Shown in pieces: positions 2,050 through 31,377 of a stretch of 64,000 bases of DNA. A program made the position numbers and the translations under genes. The DNA comes from Oligoflexia bacterium (GTDB lineage Bacteria > Bdellovibrionota > UBA1018 > CAIPTA01): assembly GCA_903867855.1 (NCBI GenBank), contig CAIPTA010000144.1:10284-74283 (forward strand). The letters run 5' to 3'. Within the stretch, counting starts at the first letter, position 1; each line of letters starts with the position of its first letter. A model generated the notes under the pieces. The model was not told the origin of the DNA, did no database searches, and was given only the letters and a program-made list of their open reading frames with translations.

Positions 2050-3327
2050 ATGAGTGAGTATATTGGCGATAGTATTTTTTCTTCCAACGAGCTGTATCGC
2101 AGCGTAATGAATCAACTCGATCGAGCCTGCTCGATTGCGGGTCTTGATCCAAACGTGGCAGATCGCTTGAAAAAACCAAAGCGTGCTTTGGTAGTGAGTG
2201 TGCCCGTGCGTATGGACGATGGTTCTATCCACACCTTCGAAGGCTATCGCGTACAACACAATATGACTCTTGGCCCCGGCAAGGGCGGTATTCGTTACCA
2301 CCAAGACGTTACTCTCTCGGAAGTGGCAGCGCTTGCAACGTTGATGACGATGAAATGCTCCCTTGTTGGTCTCCCCCTCGGCGGGGCTAAAGGCGGCGTG
2401 CGCGTAAATCCAAATCTGCTTTCTCGCGCCGAGAAACAAGCACTTACTCGCCGTTATACCACTGAAATTTCCATGATCATTGGTCCGGATAAAGATATCC
2501 CAGCTTCTGATGTGGGCACGGATGGACAAACCATGGCTTGGGTGATGGATACCTTCTCCCAAATCAAAGGCTATGCAATTCCCGGCGTAGTAACTGGTAA
2601 GCCTGTAGATATCGGCGGATCCTTGGGGCGCGAAGAATCTACCGGACGCGGCGTAGTGTTCTGCACCGAAGAAGCCGCAAAAATTTTGAAGATACCGATG
2701 AATCAGCAAACGAAAGTGGCTGTGCAAGGTTTCGGAAAAGTGGGTGCAATTGCAGCTCGTGAAATTCACTCTCTTGGCACCAAAGTGGTAGCCGTGAGCG
2801 ATGTTTCCGGCGGTATCTATAACGAAAAAGGTTTAGACATTCCCGCTTGTATGGAATGGGTGCAAAAAAATGGCGTGCTGAAGGGCTACCCCAATGCACA
2901 AGCTATCACCAATGAGGAATTGCTTGAGCTCAACGTAGAGATCCTACTTCCTTGCGCGATGGAAAACGTGATCACTGGCAAAAATGCAGCGAAAGTAAAA
3001 GCTCGTTTGATCGCTGAAGGCGCAAACGGACCGATCACTCCAGAAGGCCACGAAATCCTCGTGCAAAAAGGCGTGGTAGTGGTGCCAGATATTTTGGCTA
3101 ACGCTGGTGGCGTGATCGTGAGCTACTTCGAGTGGGTACAAGATATCCAAAGTTTCTTCTGGCAAGAAAACGAAGTGAACTCTCGCTTGAAGACGCTTAT
3201 GGTTCAAGCTTTCCATGATGTGCACGGCACCACGGAAAAACTGAAAACTGATATGCGTTCAGCAGCGCTTGCGAGAGCGATGATGAGACTCGAAAAAGCG
3301 ATGCTACTTCGCGGCCTCTTCCCATAA
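2050..3327 (+). CDS. gdhA: Glutamate dehydrogenase (Glu/Leu/Phe/Val dehydrogenase family)
   Basis: 425 aa. Signature LPLGGAKGGV with the catalytic Lys, Rossmann motif GFGKVG, SD TAAGGAG upstream. Confidence 0.9.
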   Translation: MSEYIGDSIFSSNELYRSVMNQLDRACSIAGLDPNVADRLKKPKRALVVSVPVRMDDGSIHTFEGYRVQHNMTLGPGKGGIRYHQDVTLSEVAALATLMTMKCSLVGLPLGGAKGGVRVNPNLLSRAEKQALTRRYTTEISMIIGPDKDIPASDVGTDGQTMAWVMDTFSQIKGYAIPGVVTGKPVDIGGSLGREESTGRGVVFCTEEAAKILKIPMNQQTKVAVQGFGKVGAIAAREIHSLGTKVVAVSDVSGGIYNEKGLDIPACMEWVQKNGVLKGYPNAQAITNEELLELNVEILLPCAMENVITGKNAAKVKARLIAEGANGPITPEGHEILVQKGVVVVPDILANAGGVIVSYFEWVQDIQSFFWQENEVNSRLKTLMVQAFHDVHGTTEKLKTDMRSAALARAMMRLEKAMLLRGLFP

Positions 3328-3402
3328 GAGACATCGCCAATTCTCCAATCTTGAAAATTTTTCGATGTCTCTGCGTTGAAAGACGCAGCTAAATGCTAAC
3401 AA

Positions 3403-4712: not shown

Positions 4713-5105
4713 TTATTTTCGCTTTTTAGCCCTCGGCTTCTTGGTCTTTGGGATATTTCCAATCCTTGGATCTTTTTTAAGGATCATTTCGCAAGCTAGG
4801 ATTGCTGCCTCCTCAAAGTCATCAGCGTTCGAAGGTAGCACTTGCCAGCCAGTTGGTCCGCCTTCCGCGAAAAGATAGATCGAGCGCATGCTGGGAAAAT
4901 CTCTCTTCAGGCTTTCATGGTTTTCTTTCGTAGTGGCTAGCCAAACGCCATTGTCTTCGGGGGAACTTTCGCGATCGCGCAGGATAAGAACGATCTTCTC
5001 GCCCACATAAATAGCAGTGCAGCCGAACATCGGCCTGGTATAAGGCTCGGCTGATTCTAAGGCATCAAGCACAAAAGGATATGGCGGAGCCTTTTTAATC
5101 TTCAT
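4713..5105 (-). CDS. TfoX N-terminal-domain-like protein
   Basis: 130 aa. MFGCTAIYVGEKIVLILRD resembles the TfoX_N core (MFGG-x-G-x-Y-x-x-G-K-x-F). Basic C-terminal tail. Confidence 0.4.
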   Translation of the reverse strand: MKIKKAPPYPFVLDALESAEPYTRPMFGCTAIYVGEKIVLILRDRESSPEDNGVWLATTKENHESLKRDFPSMRSIYLFAEGGPTGWQVLPSNADDFEEAAILACEMILKKDPRIGNIPKTKKPRAKKRK

Positions 5106-5131
5106 GATTGCTCACAGCGTTGGCCTACGTA

Positions 5132-6520
5132 TTAAGCAGATTTCTGATTCGATTCTTTGCCGAAAATTAAAATTTTCGTCTCTCGATACACGCGATCAAA
5201 TTCGGATGATTCACCTTTAAGGCGATCCGCAAGGCCACGAAATTCGGAGGAGTTGGCAACGGTCTTTTTGGCAACCATCCCGAGTTGTTCCATCGCGCTC
5301 ACGCTCAAAGAAACACTCTTTTCCTGAGCATTTGTTGCTTCAGAAATATTCTTAATCTTCTCGAGCATGGTACTAATTTGCTCTTGAATGTCTGCATAGT
5401 TCTTTACAGATTGATCGCCAACACTTCTGCCCTTACTGGTTTTCTCTTCTACACTTTTTACAATTTCCGCTACAAATCTGCGGCTATCCCCAATCAGTTT
5501 TTCAATCTGCATGGCTGCACTTCCGCTTGTCTGAGCGAGTTTACCCATTTCAACAGCAACAATGGCAAAGCCTTTGCCTTGCTCACCCGCTCTGGCAGCC
5601 TCGATAGAGGCATTGAAGGAAAGGAGCTCTGTTTTCTGCACGATAGAATTGATCACTTCAGTTTTTGAGCCAATTTCTTCAATGGTTTTTAGAATTTCTT
5701 GCAGATGATTATTGGTTTGCTGAATGCCTTCGAGGCCAATAGAAAGCTCATCCATGATGCTGGCACCAGACTTCGTATTTTCTTGCACTAGATTTGCGAT
5801 ATCAATGCAATTTTTCACATGATTCGAGGTCTCGGAAATCATCACTTGTACTTGATTTAAAGCTGTATCTGTTTGTTGGATCGCGGCAGATTGTTCGCTT
5901 GTGGAGGCGGCAGCTTCTTCGCTCTGCTGCACAAGAATACTAGCAGCCGAATCTAGGCTGGCAATTTTGGATGAAAGTTGGCCCACAACTAAATCTTGCG
6001 CACGCACGAAGCGACCAAAAATTAAGCTTAAGTAAGTGACTGGGAGTGTTTCTACAATCACAAATGCAGCATGAACTAGCACGATGCCGAGAGAGGCTTT
6101 GTAGTTGAAAACACTATCTGGCAAGAAAAAGAAAAATCCCAAGTGGTGCACAGCGATAGTGCCTGCAGCGGCTAAGGGTACGGCTATATTTCCAAAAATA
6201 GTAACCAGCGCTAGCATCACAAAAACATGAAAGTGAAGCTCGATCATTCCACGCCCTAGGTGAATGAGCAGCGCAGAAAAAAACATTAGAGACATGCCGA
6301 TGATAATAGAAAGTAATTTGCGGTTTCCACCCAGTAACCAAAGCATCGCAGGCCCCGCACAAATCACTAGGGATGCCACGGTGGCAAAACTCATCCCTGT
6401 TCTAAATTGCCAAGCCACCGCAGCCATCACGGGTATATGCAAAAATAGGAAACAAATTCCGAATATATTCATTCGGTCAATGTGGCGTTCAGATAGTAGC
6501 AGTTGTTTATCGGTGCTCAT
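5132..6520 (-). CDS. Methyl-accepting chemotaxis protein with polytopic N-terminal membrane module
   Basis: 462 aa. MCP signalling hairpin [33 protein letters not shown]. About 6 predicted TM helices in the first 185 aa or so. No periplasmic domain or clear HAMP. Confidence 0.85.
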
Positions 6521-26390: not shown

Positions 26391-27167
26391 ATGGAAAATA
26401 AATCTATGCGTGGTCCCGTCGCGATCCTATTCACTAGTTTTTTACTCACTGGTTGTTTTCAAACCCGTGCGGATATTCAACAAGAAAAAGAGCAACAGGC
26501 AATGGAAAGTTCCATGCAGCAGAGTGTTGCGGAACAATCGCAATCTCTGGAAGAACTACAGCAACATGTAGCGAAGTTACAGGGGCATATCGAAGAGCTT
26601 GAACACGGCCATAAGTCAGATGCGGGCGCCGAGCAGAAAAATCAGGAAGAGTTAAATAAAAAACTTGCCGCCATCACCGCACGATTGGATGCGATTGAGC
26701 AGAAACAAGAAGTGCTCTTCACAGAAGTAACGAAAGCCAAGCAAGAAGCTTTGCAAGCCCCAAAGTCTGCTCCAGCGGAACTTGCCCAAGGTGGAACTCC
26801 AAAACGAAAAGCCGCGGGCTTTGAGGCGGGCATCACCGCATTTCACGCTCATCAATATGCAGATGCAGCTGCAAATTTTAGTGCTTATTTGAAATCAGGA
26901 AAAAGCGTGAAGCATGCGCTTGATGCCAACTATTTTTTGGGCGAATCGCAGTATCAGCTGAAGCAATATTCTCAAGCTATTTTGGCCTATAATGCAGTTC
27001 ATGAAAAGGCGGGTAAGGCCTTGCTAGGTCGCAAGGCAACTCTGCGAATCGCGGAGTGCTTTTCGTTGATGGGAAATCACAAGGATGCGAAAGCTTTTGC
27101 CCAGCTTCTCTTGGATGCGAGCCCAGATAGTGCTGAAGCGAGAGCAGCACGGAAGTACTTGAAATGA
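26391..27167 (+). CDS. cpoB: Tol-Pal system protein YbgF/CpoB
   Basis: 258 aa. Signal peptide, Gln/Glu-rich coiled coil, C-terminal TPR-like repeats. Position directly after pal. Confidence 0.65.
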   Translation: MENKSMRGPVAILFTSFLLTGCFQTRADIQQEKEQQAMESSMQQSVAEQSQSLEELQQHVAKLQGHIEELEHGHKSDAGAEQKNQEELNKKLAAITARLDAIEQKQEVLFTEVTKAKQEALQAPKSAPAELAQGGTPKRKAAGFEAGITAFHAHQYADAAANFSAYLKSGKSVKHALDANYFLGESQYQLKQYSQAILAYNAVHEKAGKALLGRKATLRIAECFSLMGNHKDAKAFAQLLLDASPDSAEARAARKYLK

Positions 27168-28720
27168 AAAACCTGATTTTTACTGCGCTTGCGTTAGTGC
27201 TGGCATCGTGCACCTCGAGCAAGCAGTCTACGAAGTCTAATTCAGGAAGCATCTATATCATGTACAATAATGATAACTTTGCTTTCCTGGATCCTTGCGG
27301 CTGCCGCATCTCTCCGATCGGAGGAATTGATCGTAGATGGAATGCAATGCAAGGCTATGCAGAAGAGTCGCGCGTATTTGTTGATGGCGGGAATTTTCTA
27401 TTCAAGAGCCCGAGCGCGGCAGACTATCTCAAGCCACAATGGTTTGAGCAGGCCAAGGGCGTGGTGGAAGGATACAATCTTCTGCATGCAGATGCTGTTG
27501 CTATTGGAGAAAATGAGTTTGCGCTCGGTGTGAAAAAGTTTGAAGAGATCGCCGCTACGGCGAACTTCCCTTTCCTATCAGCCAATATTTATAAAAAGGG
27601 CACAGATACTCTGTTTGCCAAGGATTCCATTCTCCTCGAAAAGCGTGGAAAGAAAATTGGCGTTTTCGCTGTATTTTTGCCGAGCCTCAAGTTGCCTCCT
27701 GAATTAGAGGCGCGAGATATTAATGAGGCTGCTCGTGAGGAAGTGAAAAAACTTCGCGCTAGAGGAGCAGATTTAGTGATCGCTCTTGCGCACGAAGGCT
27801 ATGAGAATGATTTGAAGTTGGCTAAGGCTGTGCCCGGTATCGATCTGATTGTGGGCGCAAGCTCGCAAAGTTTGTTGCAAAATCCAACCTCGGAAGGGGA
27901 TACGCGAATTGTGCAGCTCTCTAGCCAAGGGCAGATGTTTGCCTACTTAGAGTATGGTCTCCAGGAATTTCCGAAAAAGCTTCTTAGCAATGTGGTGCTT
28001 GAGCTGAATGCGGATTTCAACCATTCGCCGAACGATGAAGCGAATCCGATGAAAAATTTGATTGCGGTTACCAACTTGCGCATTGGCCAGGCAAATCGCA
28101 AGCTCGATGAAAAAATTTGGGCCGAACATAAGGATGCTGTAGCTGGGTATGATACTTTCATTAGCTGCCGTGATTGCCATAGTAAGCAAGCAGAGTTTCA
28201 AGAAGGCAAGCCCCATGCGGCCTCATTCTTGGCATTGGTCGCTAAGAAGCAGGAAACTAACCTAGACTGTGTGAAGTGCCATAGCGTAGGCCTCGGTGTG
28301 CCAGGTGGATTCCAGTCGATGTCAGAAGCGCTTCGCGATGAGTCTGGGCAGGGTGTGGCGGTTGAATCTGTGATTGCGAAAATGGGCAAAGATTTTCCAC
28401 CTAAAGAAGAATATCGTGTGCTGTATCATAAGGATCCAAAACACTTACGTGCTGATGTGCAGCGCTGGATTGCCTCCTTGCAAAGTAGTGGGGTGAAGAA
28501 GGCCTTCCTCGGCATGCAGTGCGAGAATTGCCATGGTGGAATGTCTGGGCATCCATTTGCCAACGATAATAAGTCACCCACCGTAACTAGCGCAATTTGC
28601 CTGCAGTGCCACACCAAAGAGCAGGCTCCAGCTTGGTACGGTAGCGATGGAAAAGTAAACACAGCGGTAGTGGCAGCGGCGATTAAAGAAATGGGCTGTC
28701 CTCGCAATACGAAAGAGTAG
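27164..28720 (+). CDS. Lipoprotein fusing a degenerate calcineurin/5'-nucleotidase-like domain to a C-terminal tetra-haem cytochrome c domain
   Basis: 518 aa. Lipobox LASC. N-domain resembles UshA-type phosphoesterases but lacks the metal ligands (NNDNF, DGGNF, GENEF). Four CxxCH motifs: CRDCH, CVKCH, CENCH, CLQCH (28166-28612). Confidence 0.7.
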   Translation: MKNLIFTALALVLASCTSSKQSTKSNSGSIYIMYNNDNFAFLDPCGCRISPIGGIDRRWNAMQGYAEESRVFVDGGNFLFKSPSAADYLKPQWFEQAKGVVEGYNLLHADAVAIGENEFALGVKKFEEIAATANFPFLSANIYKKGTDTLFAKDSILLEKRGKKIGVFAVFLPSLKLPPELEARDINEAAREEVKKLRARGADLVIALAHEGYENDLKLAKAVPGIDLIVGASSQSLLQNPTSEGDTRIVQLSSQGQMFAYLEYGLQEFPKKLLSNVVLELNADFNHSPNDEANPMKNLIAVTNLRIGQANRKLDEKIWAEHKDAVAGYDTFISCRDCHSKQAEFQEGKPHAASFLALVAKKQETNLDCVKCHSVGLGVPGGFQSMSEALRDESGQGVAVESVIAKMGKDFPPKEEYRVLYHKDPKHLRADVQRWIASLQSSGVKKAFLGMQCENCHGGMSGHPFANDNKSPTVTSAICLQCHTKEQAPAWYGSDGKVNTAVVAAAIKEMGCPRNTKE

Positions 28721-29289: not shown

Positions 29290-29925
29290 TTAATTCCAGT
29301 TAACGGTGAATTCTGCGGCTGGGCCTTCGGCCTTCTCGATCTTGATGAAGCCCTTATTTAGGCCGTGCAGGAAAACATCTTTCGTTACTTCAACGTCTTT
29401 CAAGCAATACTCGATGATCTTTTTCACATCGCCTTGCTTCCACCATTCTACTGCCATGATACCATCCGCACTTTTGCCCACGCCGAGGGTGGCGGTGGCC
29501 ACTTTCTCTAGCTTCACAAATTTCCAGCCGCTCACATTATGGATATCGAGCATGATATCAAAGGTGTCGAGCTTTGAGTGGTGAGGGCAGCCGTACTTCT
29601 CGAGCACCGGCAAATCGAAGCCAATAATATTATAGCCAATCACGAGGCGCTCTTTGCAGAGCTTGATCATGTCGCCTAATTGATCTTCCGTATAGGAGTA
29701 GAATTTGCCATCGCGAGAATCGTAGGCGCAGGCCACCGATACTTCGAGAGCTTTAAAGTTTTTCCAGCCACCTACGGCATCCACTAGCGTTTTTGTTTCG
29801 ATATCCACTACGAGAAAATCTTTGTGATTTTGAAATAGAGAGGCAGGCGACAAGTCGCTGCCCAAAGGGATGCTAAGATCATGGCTCCAGAAGGAGGAAC
29901 TGAGTTTTACGCGATTTGTGCTCAT
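29290..29925 (-). CDS. Stand-alone DEDDy-type 3'-5' exonuclease (RNase H-like fold)
   Basis: 211 aa. ExoI VVDIET, ExoII GYNIIGFDLPVL, ExoIII YCLKD (Y-x3-D). Confidence 0.65.
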   Translation of the reverse strand: MSTNRVKLSSSFWSHDLSIPLGSDLSPASLFQNHKDFLVVDIETKTLVDAVGGWKNFKALEVSVACAYDSRDGKFYSYTEDQLGDMIKLCKERLVIGYNIIGFDLPVLEKYGCPHHSKLDTFDIMLDIHNVSGWKFVKLEKVATATLGVGKSADGIMAVEWWKQGDVKKIIEYCLKDVEVTKDVFLHGLNKGFIKIEKAEGPAAEFTVNWN

Positions 29926-30090
29926 AGGAATTGGATACCATAGTTCGAAAATCGCTTCAAAAGATTGCGCAGACTCTCTGTGTCTAAATGGAATATAAAT
30001 ATTTTATGTTTGTATCTACTTGGACAATGTTTAAAAATTCGCTGGAGATTCGTGCCTTTACCCCCGCATCCGGAACCCACAGATTTTTGC

Positions 30091-30119
30091 TTGACCAAAA
30101 CAATCAGGCTTGTTAGAGT
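30091..30119 (+). promoter_or_regulatory. Sigma70-like promoter for the riboswitch RNA
   Basis: TTGACC (30091-30096), 17-nt spacer, TAGAGT (30114-30119). T-rich stretch just upstream. Predicted TSS about 30126. Confidence 0.5.
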
Positions 30120-30160
30120 TGAAATATAGGGAATGGGAAACAAATTTTAAGTTAGGAAAT

Positions 30161-30252
30161 CCCAGCGAAAAGGGCAATCCGTAGCGAAAGCACGGGGCGC
30201 AAAGTTCTTATCCTACCCTCGAGAGAGAAGGGATGAAGAATTGCCGCAAGGG
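30161..30252 (+). promoter_or_regulatory. c-di-GMP class I (GEMM-I) riboswitch aptamer
   Basis: AAAAGGGCAAUCC-GUAGC-GAAA-GCAC-GGGGCGCAAAG-[hairpin 30205-30240]-UUGCC. This matches the conserved AGGGCAAACC ... GAAA ... GGGACGCAAAG ... UU(A/G)CC framework of the Vibrio cholerae Vc2 aptamer. Confidence 0.8.
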
Positions 30253-30551
30253 CGAGTGTTCCATACGTTCGGTCGAGAGCATCGGCGGCTCTGACTATGC
30301 TATGCTTGGGTTAACTATTGGCGGCGAGCTGATAGTTAGGACGTGTCGGGCCTCGAAGGAGAAACGAATGAAAACGGAGTGCTAGCGCAAGCTAGTGGTT
30401 CCGTTTACGAGAAACTTGTTTAAAAAAATTCAAATATCGATTGCATAGGATTTCGGCTCGGGACGGAGATGATAGAGTAAATATCTCTGCCGCGAGGTGA
30501 GCCTACACTATATGTGTTTGCAGCCTGCCGATTTTGATCGGCGGCGATGAA

Positions 30552-30584
30552 AGAGGTTGATTATGAATCAACCTCTTTTTTTTT
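30552..30584 (+). terminator. Rho-independent terminator of the riboswitch RNA (T-tract overlaps the convergent suhB stop codon)
   Basis: 11-bp perfect stem AGAGGTTGATT (30552-30562) / AATCAACCTCT (30566-30576), 3-nt loop, then a run of 8 further T (30577-30584; 9 consecutive T from 30576). Confidence 0.85.
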
Positions 30585-31377
30585 ATTTCAAAATTTCCAT
30601 CATGCGGGGATGAATAATCCCATTCGTCGCGAGCACTTCTCTGCCCATCAGATCTAATGGATCATTTCTATAGTTACTCACTTCGCCACCAGCTTCCGTG
30701 ACTAGTGCTGCTCCGGCACAAATATCCCAGCTACCTAAATTTTGTTCCCAAAAGCCATCGAATACACCTGCGGCTACGTAGGCAAGGTCGATTGCGGCAG
30801 CGCCGGGGCGTCTTACTGCGCGGGCCTCTAGGTGAGCATTGTGAAATTTCTCGATCGCAGGCGCTAGCATGCTCTCTTCTTGGCTGTAAGCAAAACCAGT
30901 GGTGAGCAAGCACTCAGAAATTTTCTTGCGATCACTCACGTGAATTTTCTTTTTCCCAAGAAAGGCGCCACTTCCCTTGGCTGCATGAAAAGTTTCCTTT
31001 AGACAAGGAATATGAATCACACCGAGCACTGGGTCCCCCGCGATCGCGAGACCGATAGAGACACAAAACATGGGAAAGCCGTGAACGAAATTTGTGGTGC
31101 CATCGAGTGGATCCACATGCCAAACGGGAGTATCGCCGTGAATGAGATCACTTTGGCCACTTTCTTCCCCAATGAAAACGAAGCTAGGAAACTTTTTCTG
31201 AAGAGCGGCTTTAATGAATTTTTCGCTCTTTAAGTCAGCTTGTGTAACAAGCCCTGCTTTAAACTTTTCTTTGATGATGAGTTTTTTACGATAGTAGCTT
31301 AGCAAAATTTTGCCTGCGCCTTCTGCTACTTTACAAACCTCGGCCTTAATTTTTACGAGCTCTGATTTCTTGAGCAT
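30583..31377 (-). CDS. suhB: Inositol monophosphatase family protein
   Basis: 264 aa. IMPase motifs WHVDPLDGTTNFVHG and GSWDICAGAALVTEAGG. Confidence 0.85.
   Translation of the reverse strand: MLKKSELVKIKAEVCKVAEGAGKILLSYYRKKLIIKEKFKAGLVTQADLKSEKFIKAALQKKFPSFVFIGEESGQSDLIHGDTPVWHVDPLDGTTNFVHGFPMFCVSIGLAIAGDPVLGVIHIPCLKETFHAAKGSGAFLGKKKIHVSDRKKISECLLTTGFAYSQEESMLAPAIEKFHNAHLEARAVRRPGAAAIDLAYVAAGVFDGFWEQNLGSWDICAGAALVTEAGGEVSNYRNDPLDLMGREVLATNGIIHPRMMEILK

Follow-up and report, generated by a model that had tools for sequence, protein, structure and literature searches.

What is a riboswitch for when there is no gene for it to control? The question is raised by an aptamer for cyclic dimeric guanosine monophosphate (c-di-GMP) in DNA from an uncultured Oligoflexia bacterium of predatory type (contig CAIPTA010000144.1), of which a stretch of 64 kb, here called the window, was analyzed. 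The aptamer lies between two genes encoded on the opposite strand, and the original prediction, made from the window by itself, described a stand-alone promoter-aptamer-terminator unit with no target in cis. Comparison with related loci indicates that a noncoding RNA of ~460 nt on the + strand (~30126 to 30584) has here an autonomous gene of its own. It also indicates that the aptamer is the lesser component, being attached to a structured RNA that survives without it. On balance, we lean toward a reading in which the aptamer serves a trans-acting effector RNA as its input module for c-di-GMP, working through the stability or the activity of that RNA and not as a gene switch.

Relatives of the unit were recovered by synteny from Bdellovibrionota genomes or metagenome contigs, using the inositol monophosphatase (IMPase) family gene of the window as the anchor. 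The IMPase protein assigns the window itself to the Bdellovibrionota, its best genome matches being metagenome-assembled genomes labelled Bdellovibrionales, Oligoflexia, and Bacteriovoracia, with identities of at most 66%. The RNA unit and its aptamer were found at eight further distinct loci (L004, L005, L083, L162, L164, L166, L168, and L171), with L163 and L167 as near-duplicates among the aptamer-bearing loci. Two copies have no aptamer (L006 and L172), and a partial copy ends at a contig end (L161). The family set contains 11 full units, namely, the window, the eight aptamer-bearing loci, L006, and L172, or 12 sequences with L161; the window and the eight further loci are referred to as the nine aptamer-bearing members. 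The unit is absent from the related loci L001 to L003, L081, L082, L169, and L173. Among the matches listed from a metagenome protein scan were four close relatives, at least one of them (L083) being new to the family, and the pattern of the aptamer core (CGCAAARYTCTNATCCTAC...TGCCG) gave 0 matches in a metagenome scan.

The identity of the sensor was established with Rfam. When the whole window was scanned with the gathering score as the threshold, RF01051 (c-di-GMP-I, or GEMM-I) was the sole family above it, and the nine family aptamers all exceed the threshold, with scores of 42.6 to 50.8 bits. G30173 (model position 11), CGCAAA at 30198 to 30203, and UUGCCG at 30241 to 30246 are invariant in all nine. 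Going by the Vc2 structures, we take three nucleotides to be ligand contacts: the G that corresponds to Vc2 G20, the A of CGCAAA, and the C of UGCC. A G at the G20 position, and not an A, speaks for c-di-GMP over 3′,3′-cyclic GMP-AMP. Judged by its sequence, the aptamer genuinely belongs to the c-di-GMP-I class and keeps every known position of ligand contact. It resembles other RF01051 riboswitches in sequence and structure, in the GAAA tetraloop of the first hairpin, and in the binding-site nucleotides. It differs from them in lying outside any 5′ untranslated region (UTR), in having no open reading frame (ORF) behind it, and in being joined to a conserved noncoding domain.

That domain accounts for most of the RNA. 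In the original prediction, the 330 nt past the aptamer were given no role beyond that of a spacer; they hold instead a covariation-supported RNA domain that is able to exist without the aptamer. Alignment A4 comprises the 120 to 130 nt 3′ of the aptamer in the nine aptamer-bearing sequences, and its consensus consists of a 3-bp hairpin, a long helix (Pa), a variable hairpin (Pb), the unpaired conserved stretch GCUAGGGUUA, and a further hairpin (Pc), with Pa, Pb, and Pc forming a three-way junction. RNAalifold assigned 34 pairs to the junction domain, 26 of them with compensatory changes. Across the nine sequences, 87.3% of the cells are paired, compared with 33 to 52% when the partners are slid, and 0 of 500 shuffles reached a value as high; the covariation score is 0.61, versus at most 0.20 in controls. 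A covariance model (R1) built on these nine sequences scores the window at 81.4 bits. After L006 and L172 were added and the alignment was fitted to R1, 93.1% of the cells were paired and 30 of 34 pairs were compensatory, with slid controls at 31 to 50%. G-U makes up ~15% of the paired cells of this 11-sequence alignment, and the fold is therefore specific to the + (RNA) strand.

Structural conservation extends to the 3′ end of the unit. The outer stem of the next hairpin (Pd) covaries across members (GGUGC/GCACC, AGUGC/GCACU, and GGAGC/GCUCC). The hairpin before the terminator (Pf) is a 9-bp helix with several pair types at each position, and Pf and the terminator together are 88.5% paired, against 47 to 64% in slid controls, with compensatory changes in 15 of 20 pairs. 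A permissive Rfam scan (E ≤ 10) restricted to 29900 to 30700 returned, besides the aptamer, only chance matches to the terminator hairpin, and at this limit no family matched the ~300 nt that follow the aptamer. On this comparative evidence, the ~300 nt are a conserved structured RNA that was previously undescribed.

Table 1. Predicted features of the RNA unit and its flanking genes (window positions).
Feature	Position	Strand	Basis or remark
RNase H-like 3′-5′ exonuclease-fold gene, divergent	29290..29925	−	Not conserved on promoter side
Sigma-70-type promoter	30091..30119	+	-35 TTGACC 30091-30096; 17-nt spacer ending TGT (extended -10); -10 TAGAGT 30114-30119
Predicted transcription start	~30126	+	From promoter position
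5′ leader	30126..30160	+	Starts AUAGGG; AUAGG(G/A) 3′ of -10 in most members (alignment)
c-di-GMP-I (GEMM-I) aptamer	30163..30248	+	RF01051, 49.2 bits versus gathering score 35; full model 1-87
3-pair hairpin, candidate switch of original prediction	30243..30253	+	G30243-C30245 with G30251-C30253; shares GGG with P1
Three-way-junction domain	30254..30354	+	RNAalifold and covariation
Long helix Pa	30254-30270 with 30339-30354	+	Encloses Pb, junction, and Pc
Variable hairpin Pb	30271-30296	+	Consensus fold
Unpaired conserved junction GCUUGGGUUA	30304-30313	+	Consensus fold
Hairpin Pc	30312-30338	+	G-GNRA loop GGCGA 30323-30327
Shine-Dalgarno-AUG element	30355..30385	+	GAAGGAG 30355-30361, 6-nt spacer, AUG 30368-30370; predicted unpaired
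Mini-ORF MKTEC-stop, 5 codons	30368-30385	+	ORF reading; putative
Hairpin Pd, GCAA tetraloop	30372..30406	+	Fold prediction; outer stem starts 1-3 nt past AUG in relatives
A/U-rich linker	30407..30454	+	Predicted single-stranded; A/U-rich stretch here in all members
Variable hairpins Pe (30455-30503) and small hairpin (30505-30517)	30455..30517	+	Number and sequence differ among members
Conserved hairpin Pf (CCUGCCGAU-UUUG-AUCGGCGG)	30524..30544	+	Directly before terminator
Intrinsic terminator	30549..30584	+	14-pair stem, loop AUG, U9; hairpin 30549-30579
IMPase-family gene ("suhB"), convergent	30583..31377	−	Only conserved neighbor of RNA unit

The limits of the unit are set by signals that the original prediction had already placed, namely, a TTGACC-N17-TAGAGT promoter ahead of the aptamer and a perfect 11-bp hairpin with a T-run ending at about 30584. 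Both were located there (Table 1). The terminator has the perfect core AGAGGTTGATT/AATCAACCTCT followed by T9, and on the − strand side of the hairpin only UUU follows. Single promoter or terminator matches are as frequent in shuffles and are hence not significant alone; the significance of the two signals arises because both recur in register with the unit across related loci. The promoter geometry (TTGAC[ACT], exactly 17 nt ending in TGn, and (G/T)AnnnT) is present in 11/11 full units, all of which end at the same place in a G+C-rich hairpin with T6 to T9. The whole unit folds with a z-score of −4.87 versus shuffles. As a separate observation, the first -10 position is G and not T in 9 of the 11 family promoters (TGnGAAnnT), always together with the extended -10 TG and the exact 17-nt spacer; this may be a lineage-specific promoter preference.

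Gene context shows the same independence. Both flanking genes were confirmed as − strand ORFs, as had been claimed. A comparison of synteny with suhB and the exonuclease gene had also been suggested; relatives share the order Aminotran_4, IMPase, RNA unit, and the exonuclease is not a conserved neighbor, its position being occupied by other genes in L004, L005, L162, L164, L168, and L171. In 10 of the 11 full units, the RNA is convergent with the IMPase gene and directly adjoins it. In L166/L167, whose flanking genes match those of the window (IMPase, exonuclease, and multiheme cytochrome, in this order), the whole unit is inverted between the IMPase and exonuclease genes, is codirectional with both, and points away from the IMPase gene. 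The inverted unit has its own hairpin and T8, 79 nt before the exonuclease start. Because promoter and terminator are kept while the unit is flipped between the same neighbors, the unit is a gene in its own right. The terminator lies before the next gene in every locus, and no conserved same-strand downstream ORF was found within the transcription unit, the neighbors being convergent or variable. The claim of a stand-alone unit without a cis target therefore holds across the nine aptamer-bearing loci, with their variable promoter-side gene, the inversion in L166/L167, and no conserved ORF.

The convergent arrangement could also mean that c-di-GMP-modulated transcription interferes, or that the RNA pairs, with the 3′ end of the IMPase mRNA. 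In the window, L168, and L171, the terminator T-run overlaps the stop codon of the IMPase gene, and riboswitch-controlled antisense RNAs are known (cited in PMC3627812). Such a role appears very unlikely, however, since the strong hairpin and U9 stop the RNA at the gene border with an overlap of a few nucleotides at most, the aptamer lies 300 nt upstream of the terminator with no conserved alternative fold, and the unit of L166/L167 faces away from the IMPase gene.

The R1 model brought out the units without an aptamer. A search of 450 kb of related DNA gave L006 (37.8 bits) and L172 (44 bits) as the sole extra matches, and neither had been used in model building. Both keep the family promoter, the three-way junction, the Shine-Dalgarno-AUG, Pd, Pf, and the terminator. 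No c-di-GMP-I match at the gathering threshold was found in either, and in L006 there was none even at E ≤ 10. L006 holds vestiges of the aptamer (AAACCCGGCG..., GGCGAAAGC), and in L172 the distance from promoter to junction domain is just ~45 nt, so that their state reads as secondary loss of the aptamer. Since these units have been kept, the downstream RNA would have a function independent of c-di-GMP, and a covarying domain able to exist without the aptamer argues against a pure c-di-GMP buffer.

Buffering is the role proposed for the best-known RNA of this kind, merRNA of Bdellovibrio bacteriovorus HD100 (445 nt, 1,073,741 to 1,074,185, − strand), which is induced ~5000-fold in the attack phase, contains a c-di-GMP riboswitch with no conserved downstream ORF, and was proposed to store c-di-GMP (Karunker et al. 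2013, PMC3627812). Applied to the window, this model would have an abundant RNA sequester the messenger, with the remainder of the transcript serving stability and termination. It would account for an orphan aptamer with conserved binding-site nucleotides and no detectable expression platform, and the near-consensus -35 with an extended -10 suggests a strong promoter; that the same role was proposed within the same phylum adds to its appeal. Nevertheless, we regard a pure sponge as rather unlikely. Structural selection on the ~300 nt of RNA behind the aptamer goes far beyond the need of a stable tail, two lineages keep the whole RNA without the part that would bind the messenger, and the high abundance of the window RNA is assumed.

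The likeness to merRNA is one of kind and, by sequence comparison, not a demonstrable homology. Both RNAs come from the same phylum and carry a c-di-GMP-I aptamer in a stand-alone transcript of ~450 nt with its own intrinsic terminator, no conserved ORF, and a strong Shine-Dalgarno-AUG with a short ORF. The original prediction was thus right to cite merRNA as a precedent, although not as regards similarity outside the aptamer or the order of modules; nor is the window RNA a "longer relative," 445 and ~460 nt being about the same size. The merRNA aptamer lies in the 3′ half of the molecule (~nt 236 to 320 of 445; Figure S1 of PMC3627812), in contrast to the 5′ position in the window RNA, and merRNA, by reading of its sequence, lacks the three-way junction with the G-GNRA loop. 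Massive attack-phase expression was shown for merRNA, whereas the window RNA is known here from sequence alone. Family profiles match merRNA weakly and in the aptamer only (E = 0.13). A 5′-end homology seen by eye ("YUCGGG-hairpin-UAG-GGCC-AAGGAG-AUG") was rejected, since nhmmer with the post-aptamer and junction-to-AUG profiles gave no match to merRNA above 500 shuffles. merRNA is flanked by Bd1134 (mrp) and by Bd1131, whose annotation is branched-chain amino acid aminotransferase, and the window RNA has the IMPase gene. Positional orthology through the class IV aminotransferase gene that adjoins the IMPase gene is treated as not supported, because the window protein (307 aa, type-I-like, below all equivalog cutoffs) is of a shorter type than Bd1131 (1068 nt, ~355 aa; strand not given in Table S1 of that study). 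The authors of the merRNA study saw no conservation beyond the Bdellovibrio lineage (PMC3627812), and when we searched the later literature for functional studies of this or comparable RNAs, only mentions of expression turned up. In the same HD100 data, the attack-phase "small RNA" APsRNA5 (Figure S1, PMC3627812) has AAAGGAG-7 nt-ATG and a 29-codon ORF (MAKKHVVRKEYIWNREIRELALLTETGPP, then stop), an arrangement that may mark it as the mRNA of a small protein and not a noncoding RNA.

A classical switch was looked for in the window RNA itself. The original prediction had named a hairpin competing with closure of the aptamer as the candidate. RNAalifold does predict this hairpin, but its pairs are invariant in the nine members bar a one-sided G-U to G-C change, and with no covariation the comparison neither supports nor refutes it. 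The closing helix P1 is predicted to form from (U)CCC at 30160 to 30163 with GGG(C) at 30250 to 30253. When the 5′ half of the aptamer was blocked in RNAalifold, only the 3-bp GCC/GGG hairpin arose, and the fold of the junction domain was unchanged. No terminator (hairpin with a U-run) lies directly 3′ of the aptamer; a weak terminator-like site at 30380 to 30397 corresponds to hairpin Pd, behind which relatives have A-rich sequence. Among free, aptamer-enforced, and P1-blocked ensembles, modelling gave no consistent shift in the accessibility of the Shine-Dalgarno sequence or the AUG. With no alternative helix in the consensus either, a translational switch was rejected. No mutually exclusive helix of the terminator/antiterminator or Shine-Dalgarno-sequestering type was found, and we conclude from the modelling that the RNA has no classical expression platform.

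The region directly 3′ of Pa raises a different possibility. GGAG, 5 to 7 nt, and AUG are found there in 12/12 sequences, the spacer sequence being variable and the AUG invariant, and the element is unpaired in the consensus fold. The ORFs that follow have 2 to 26 codons, a length that is not conserved. Four members have MGA-stop (L164, L166, L168, and L172) and two have MSA-stop (L083 and L171), alongside ME-stop in L004, MSAG-stop in L161, MGASLAA-stop in L162, and longer ORFs in L005 and L006. An exposed element of this kind could recruit 30S subunits or ribosomes for self-stabilization or titration, tuned by c-di-GMP, and merRNA carries a comparable AAGGAGG-6 nt-AUG with a 12-codon ORF. 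That motif also occurs in 2 to 7% of shuffles, however, and the modelled accessibility does not follow the state of the aptamer. The codons after the AUG double as the 5′ strand of Pd and covary with it, so that their conservation may be structural, and translation at this AUG is putative. For these reasons, a primarily ribosome-directed RNA seems improbable to us.

A more speculative version, for which our expectation is lower still, is a c-di-GMP-sensing ribosome decoy, that is, an abundant RNA in which the three-way junction displays the Shine-Dalgarno-AUG with an ORF of 2 to 5 codons. If this were true, 30S subunits, ribosomes, or a translation factor would be captured, and global translation would be coupled to c-di-GMP in the nongrowing hunting phase of predatory bacteria. 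The aptamer-less lineages would have uncoupled the function from c-di-GMP, and merRNA would serve the same task either through convergence or as a very divergent form.

Coding potential was assessed along the whole RNA strand. The longest ORF within the unit on the + strand is a 50-codon ATG ORF at 30233 to 30385, and not one of 26 codons as first stated, although it is not conserved. It starts inside the aptamer without a proper Shine-Dalgarno sequence, and its counterparts in relatives are fragments of 18 to 49 aa that start at the aptamer's own ATG; L004 has no ORF of ≥18 aa on the RNA strand. Six-frame ORFs of all members, the check for conserved micro-ORFs proposed with the original prediction, yielded no ORF common to them, and ORF similarity among members merely tracks nucleotide conservation. 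With no such ORF and no Pfam match for the 50-aa ORF, a protein-coding reading was rejected. That the region is a small-protein gene of this sort, or the decaying leader of a lost gene, is extremely unlikely, given that the ORF is shortened or absent in relatives and that promoter, aptamer, helices, and terminator are under purifying selection even though the IMPase proteins are just 60 to 70% identical.

Small RNAs that sequester CsrA/RsmA are enriched in GGA motifs, typically in hairpin loops. A CsrA sponge was rejected here, the GGA counts being −1.2 to +0.9 standard deviations from dinucleotide shuffles in all members and merRNA, and the Pc loop being G-GNRA and not consistently GGA.

The reading toward which we lean, an effector RNA with a c-di-GMP input, would operate as follows. 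The RNA would act in trans, with its downstream part as the effector and the ribosome, a protein, or another RNA as the partner. In the RNAalifold structure of the aptamer together with the domain, P1 runs straight into Pa without a linker, and the two helices could stack. Most likely, the ligand would compact the 5′ end and stack P1 on Pa, changing the stability of the RNA or the binding of its partner rather than switching a gene on or off. Compaction or stacking is the likely mode of action because no exclusive helix, terminator, or sequestered Shine-Dalgarno sequence lies behind the aptamer.

Partial precedents exist. In EutX/Rli55 (B12 riboswitch) and SreA/SreB (S-adenosylmethionine riboswitch), a 5′ metabolite aptamer is followed by a noncoding part that acts in trans. 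SreA/SreB are terminated leaders of real genes, and in EutX/Rli55 the ligand sets transcription of the effector through a terminator directly behind the aptamer. The window RNA shares with EutX/Rli55 a 5′ aptamer on a noncoding transcript but has no conserved terminator behind the aptamer. The closest mechanistic precedent, by analogy, is given by the small RNAs of Vibrio cholerae that carry Vc2 at their 3′ end upstream of tfoY, where RNA with bound c-di-GMP is shielded from degradation (Pursley and Waters, bioRxiv 10.1101/617340). There the ligand acts on RNA stability and not on termination, as we infer for the window RNA. Vc2 differs in forming the 3′ end of those RNAs and in being also the classical 5′-UTR riboswitch of tfoY, while the window aptamer is 5′-proximal with no downstream gene.

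Several points weigh against an effector RNA with a c-di-GMP input. Binding of c-di-GMP by the window aptamer is predicted, as are transcription, abundance, and the ends of the RNA, which were read from the sequence. An effect of c-di-GMP on stability or activity is suggested by analogy, and in the modelling, folding of the aptamer had no consistent effect on the rest of the RNA, which fits passive ligand binding equally. Ribosome, protein, and RNA are all candidates for the partner of the effector, and a translation-linked function is possible given the invariant Shine-Dalgarno-AUG. Finally, the comparison draws on one clade, with 11 full sequences and one partial sequence, all obtained through IMPase synteny.

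Other features of the neighborhood were recorded. The name suhB given to the convergent gene stands as far as the inositol monophosphatase family is concerned. The protein falls below every NCBIfam equivalog cutoff, with histidinol-phosphatase HisN as the best (166 bits versus a cutoff of 275), and suhB is therefore merely a family label. L169 is a close relative, its IMPase protein (P0056) sharing 81% identity with the L005 protein, but only 58 nt lie between its IMPase gene and the next gene (3298 to 3356), and it gives no R1 match; by this comparison, recent loss or relocation of the unit took place in the L169 lineage. In L002, at ~4800 to 5300, the place of the RNA unit 3′ of the IMPase gene is taken by tandem units of ~45 nt (CCGCACAATCCTGGAAAYCCCGGACGCCCGAATCCTCCGCGGCCTC), broken by a masked run of N. 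On the promoter side, the RNA leader contains a minus-strand promoter-like site (TTAAAA-16-TATATT, 30123 to 30150) that stands back-to-back with the RNA promoter and could drive the exonuclease gene, in which case the divergent promoters would overlap. Two genes from the exonuclease, with a GrpB gene between, the window encodes a 518-aa multiheme c-type cytochrome (27164 to 28720, + strand); in L166, a similar cytochrome gene directly adjoins the exonuclease gene.

Gene-less riboswitches are very rare, and merRNA, the best-known case, has stood for more than a decade as a single-genus curiosity with a speculative sponge model. The present family adds orphan c-di-GMP riboswitch RNAs that are conserved as autonomous genes in other lineages of the Bdellovibrionota, an aptamer fused to a covariation-supported domain of ~300 nt that is absent from Rfam, and natural aptamer-less versions that separate "sensor" from "effector." The question of what an orphan riboswitch does becomes testable in these terms, through ligand-dependent stability, through binding of a defined domain to ribosomes or proteins, and through comparison of the natural forms that have the aptamer with those that lack it. 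Should the effector prove to be ribosome directed, a second messenger would be linked directly to translation by RNA alone.

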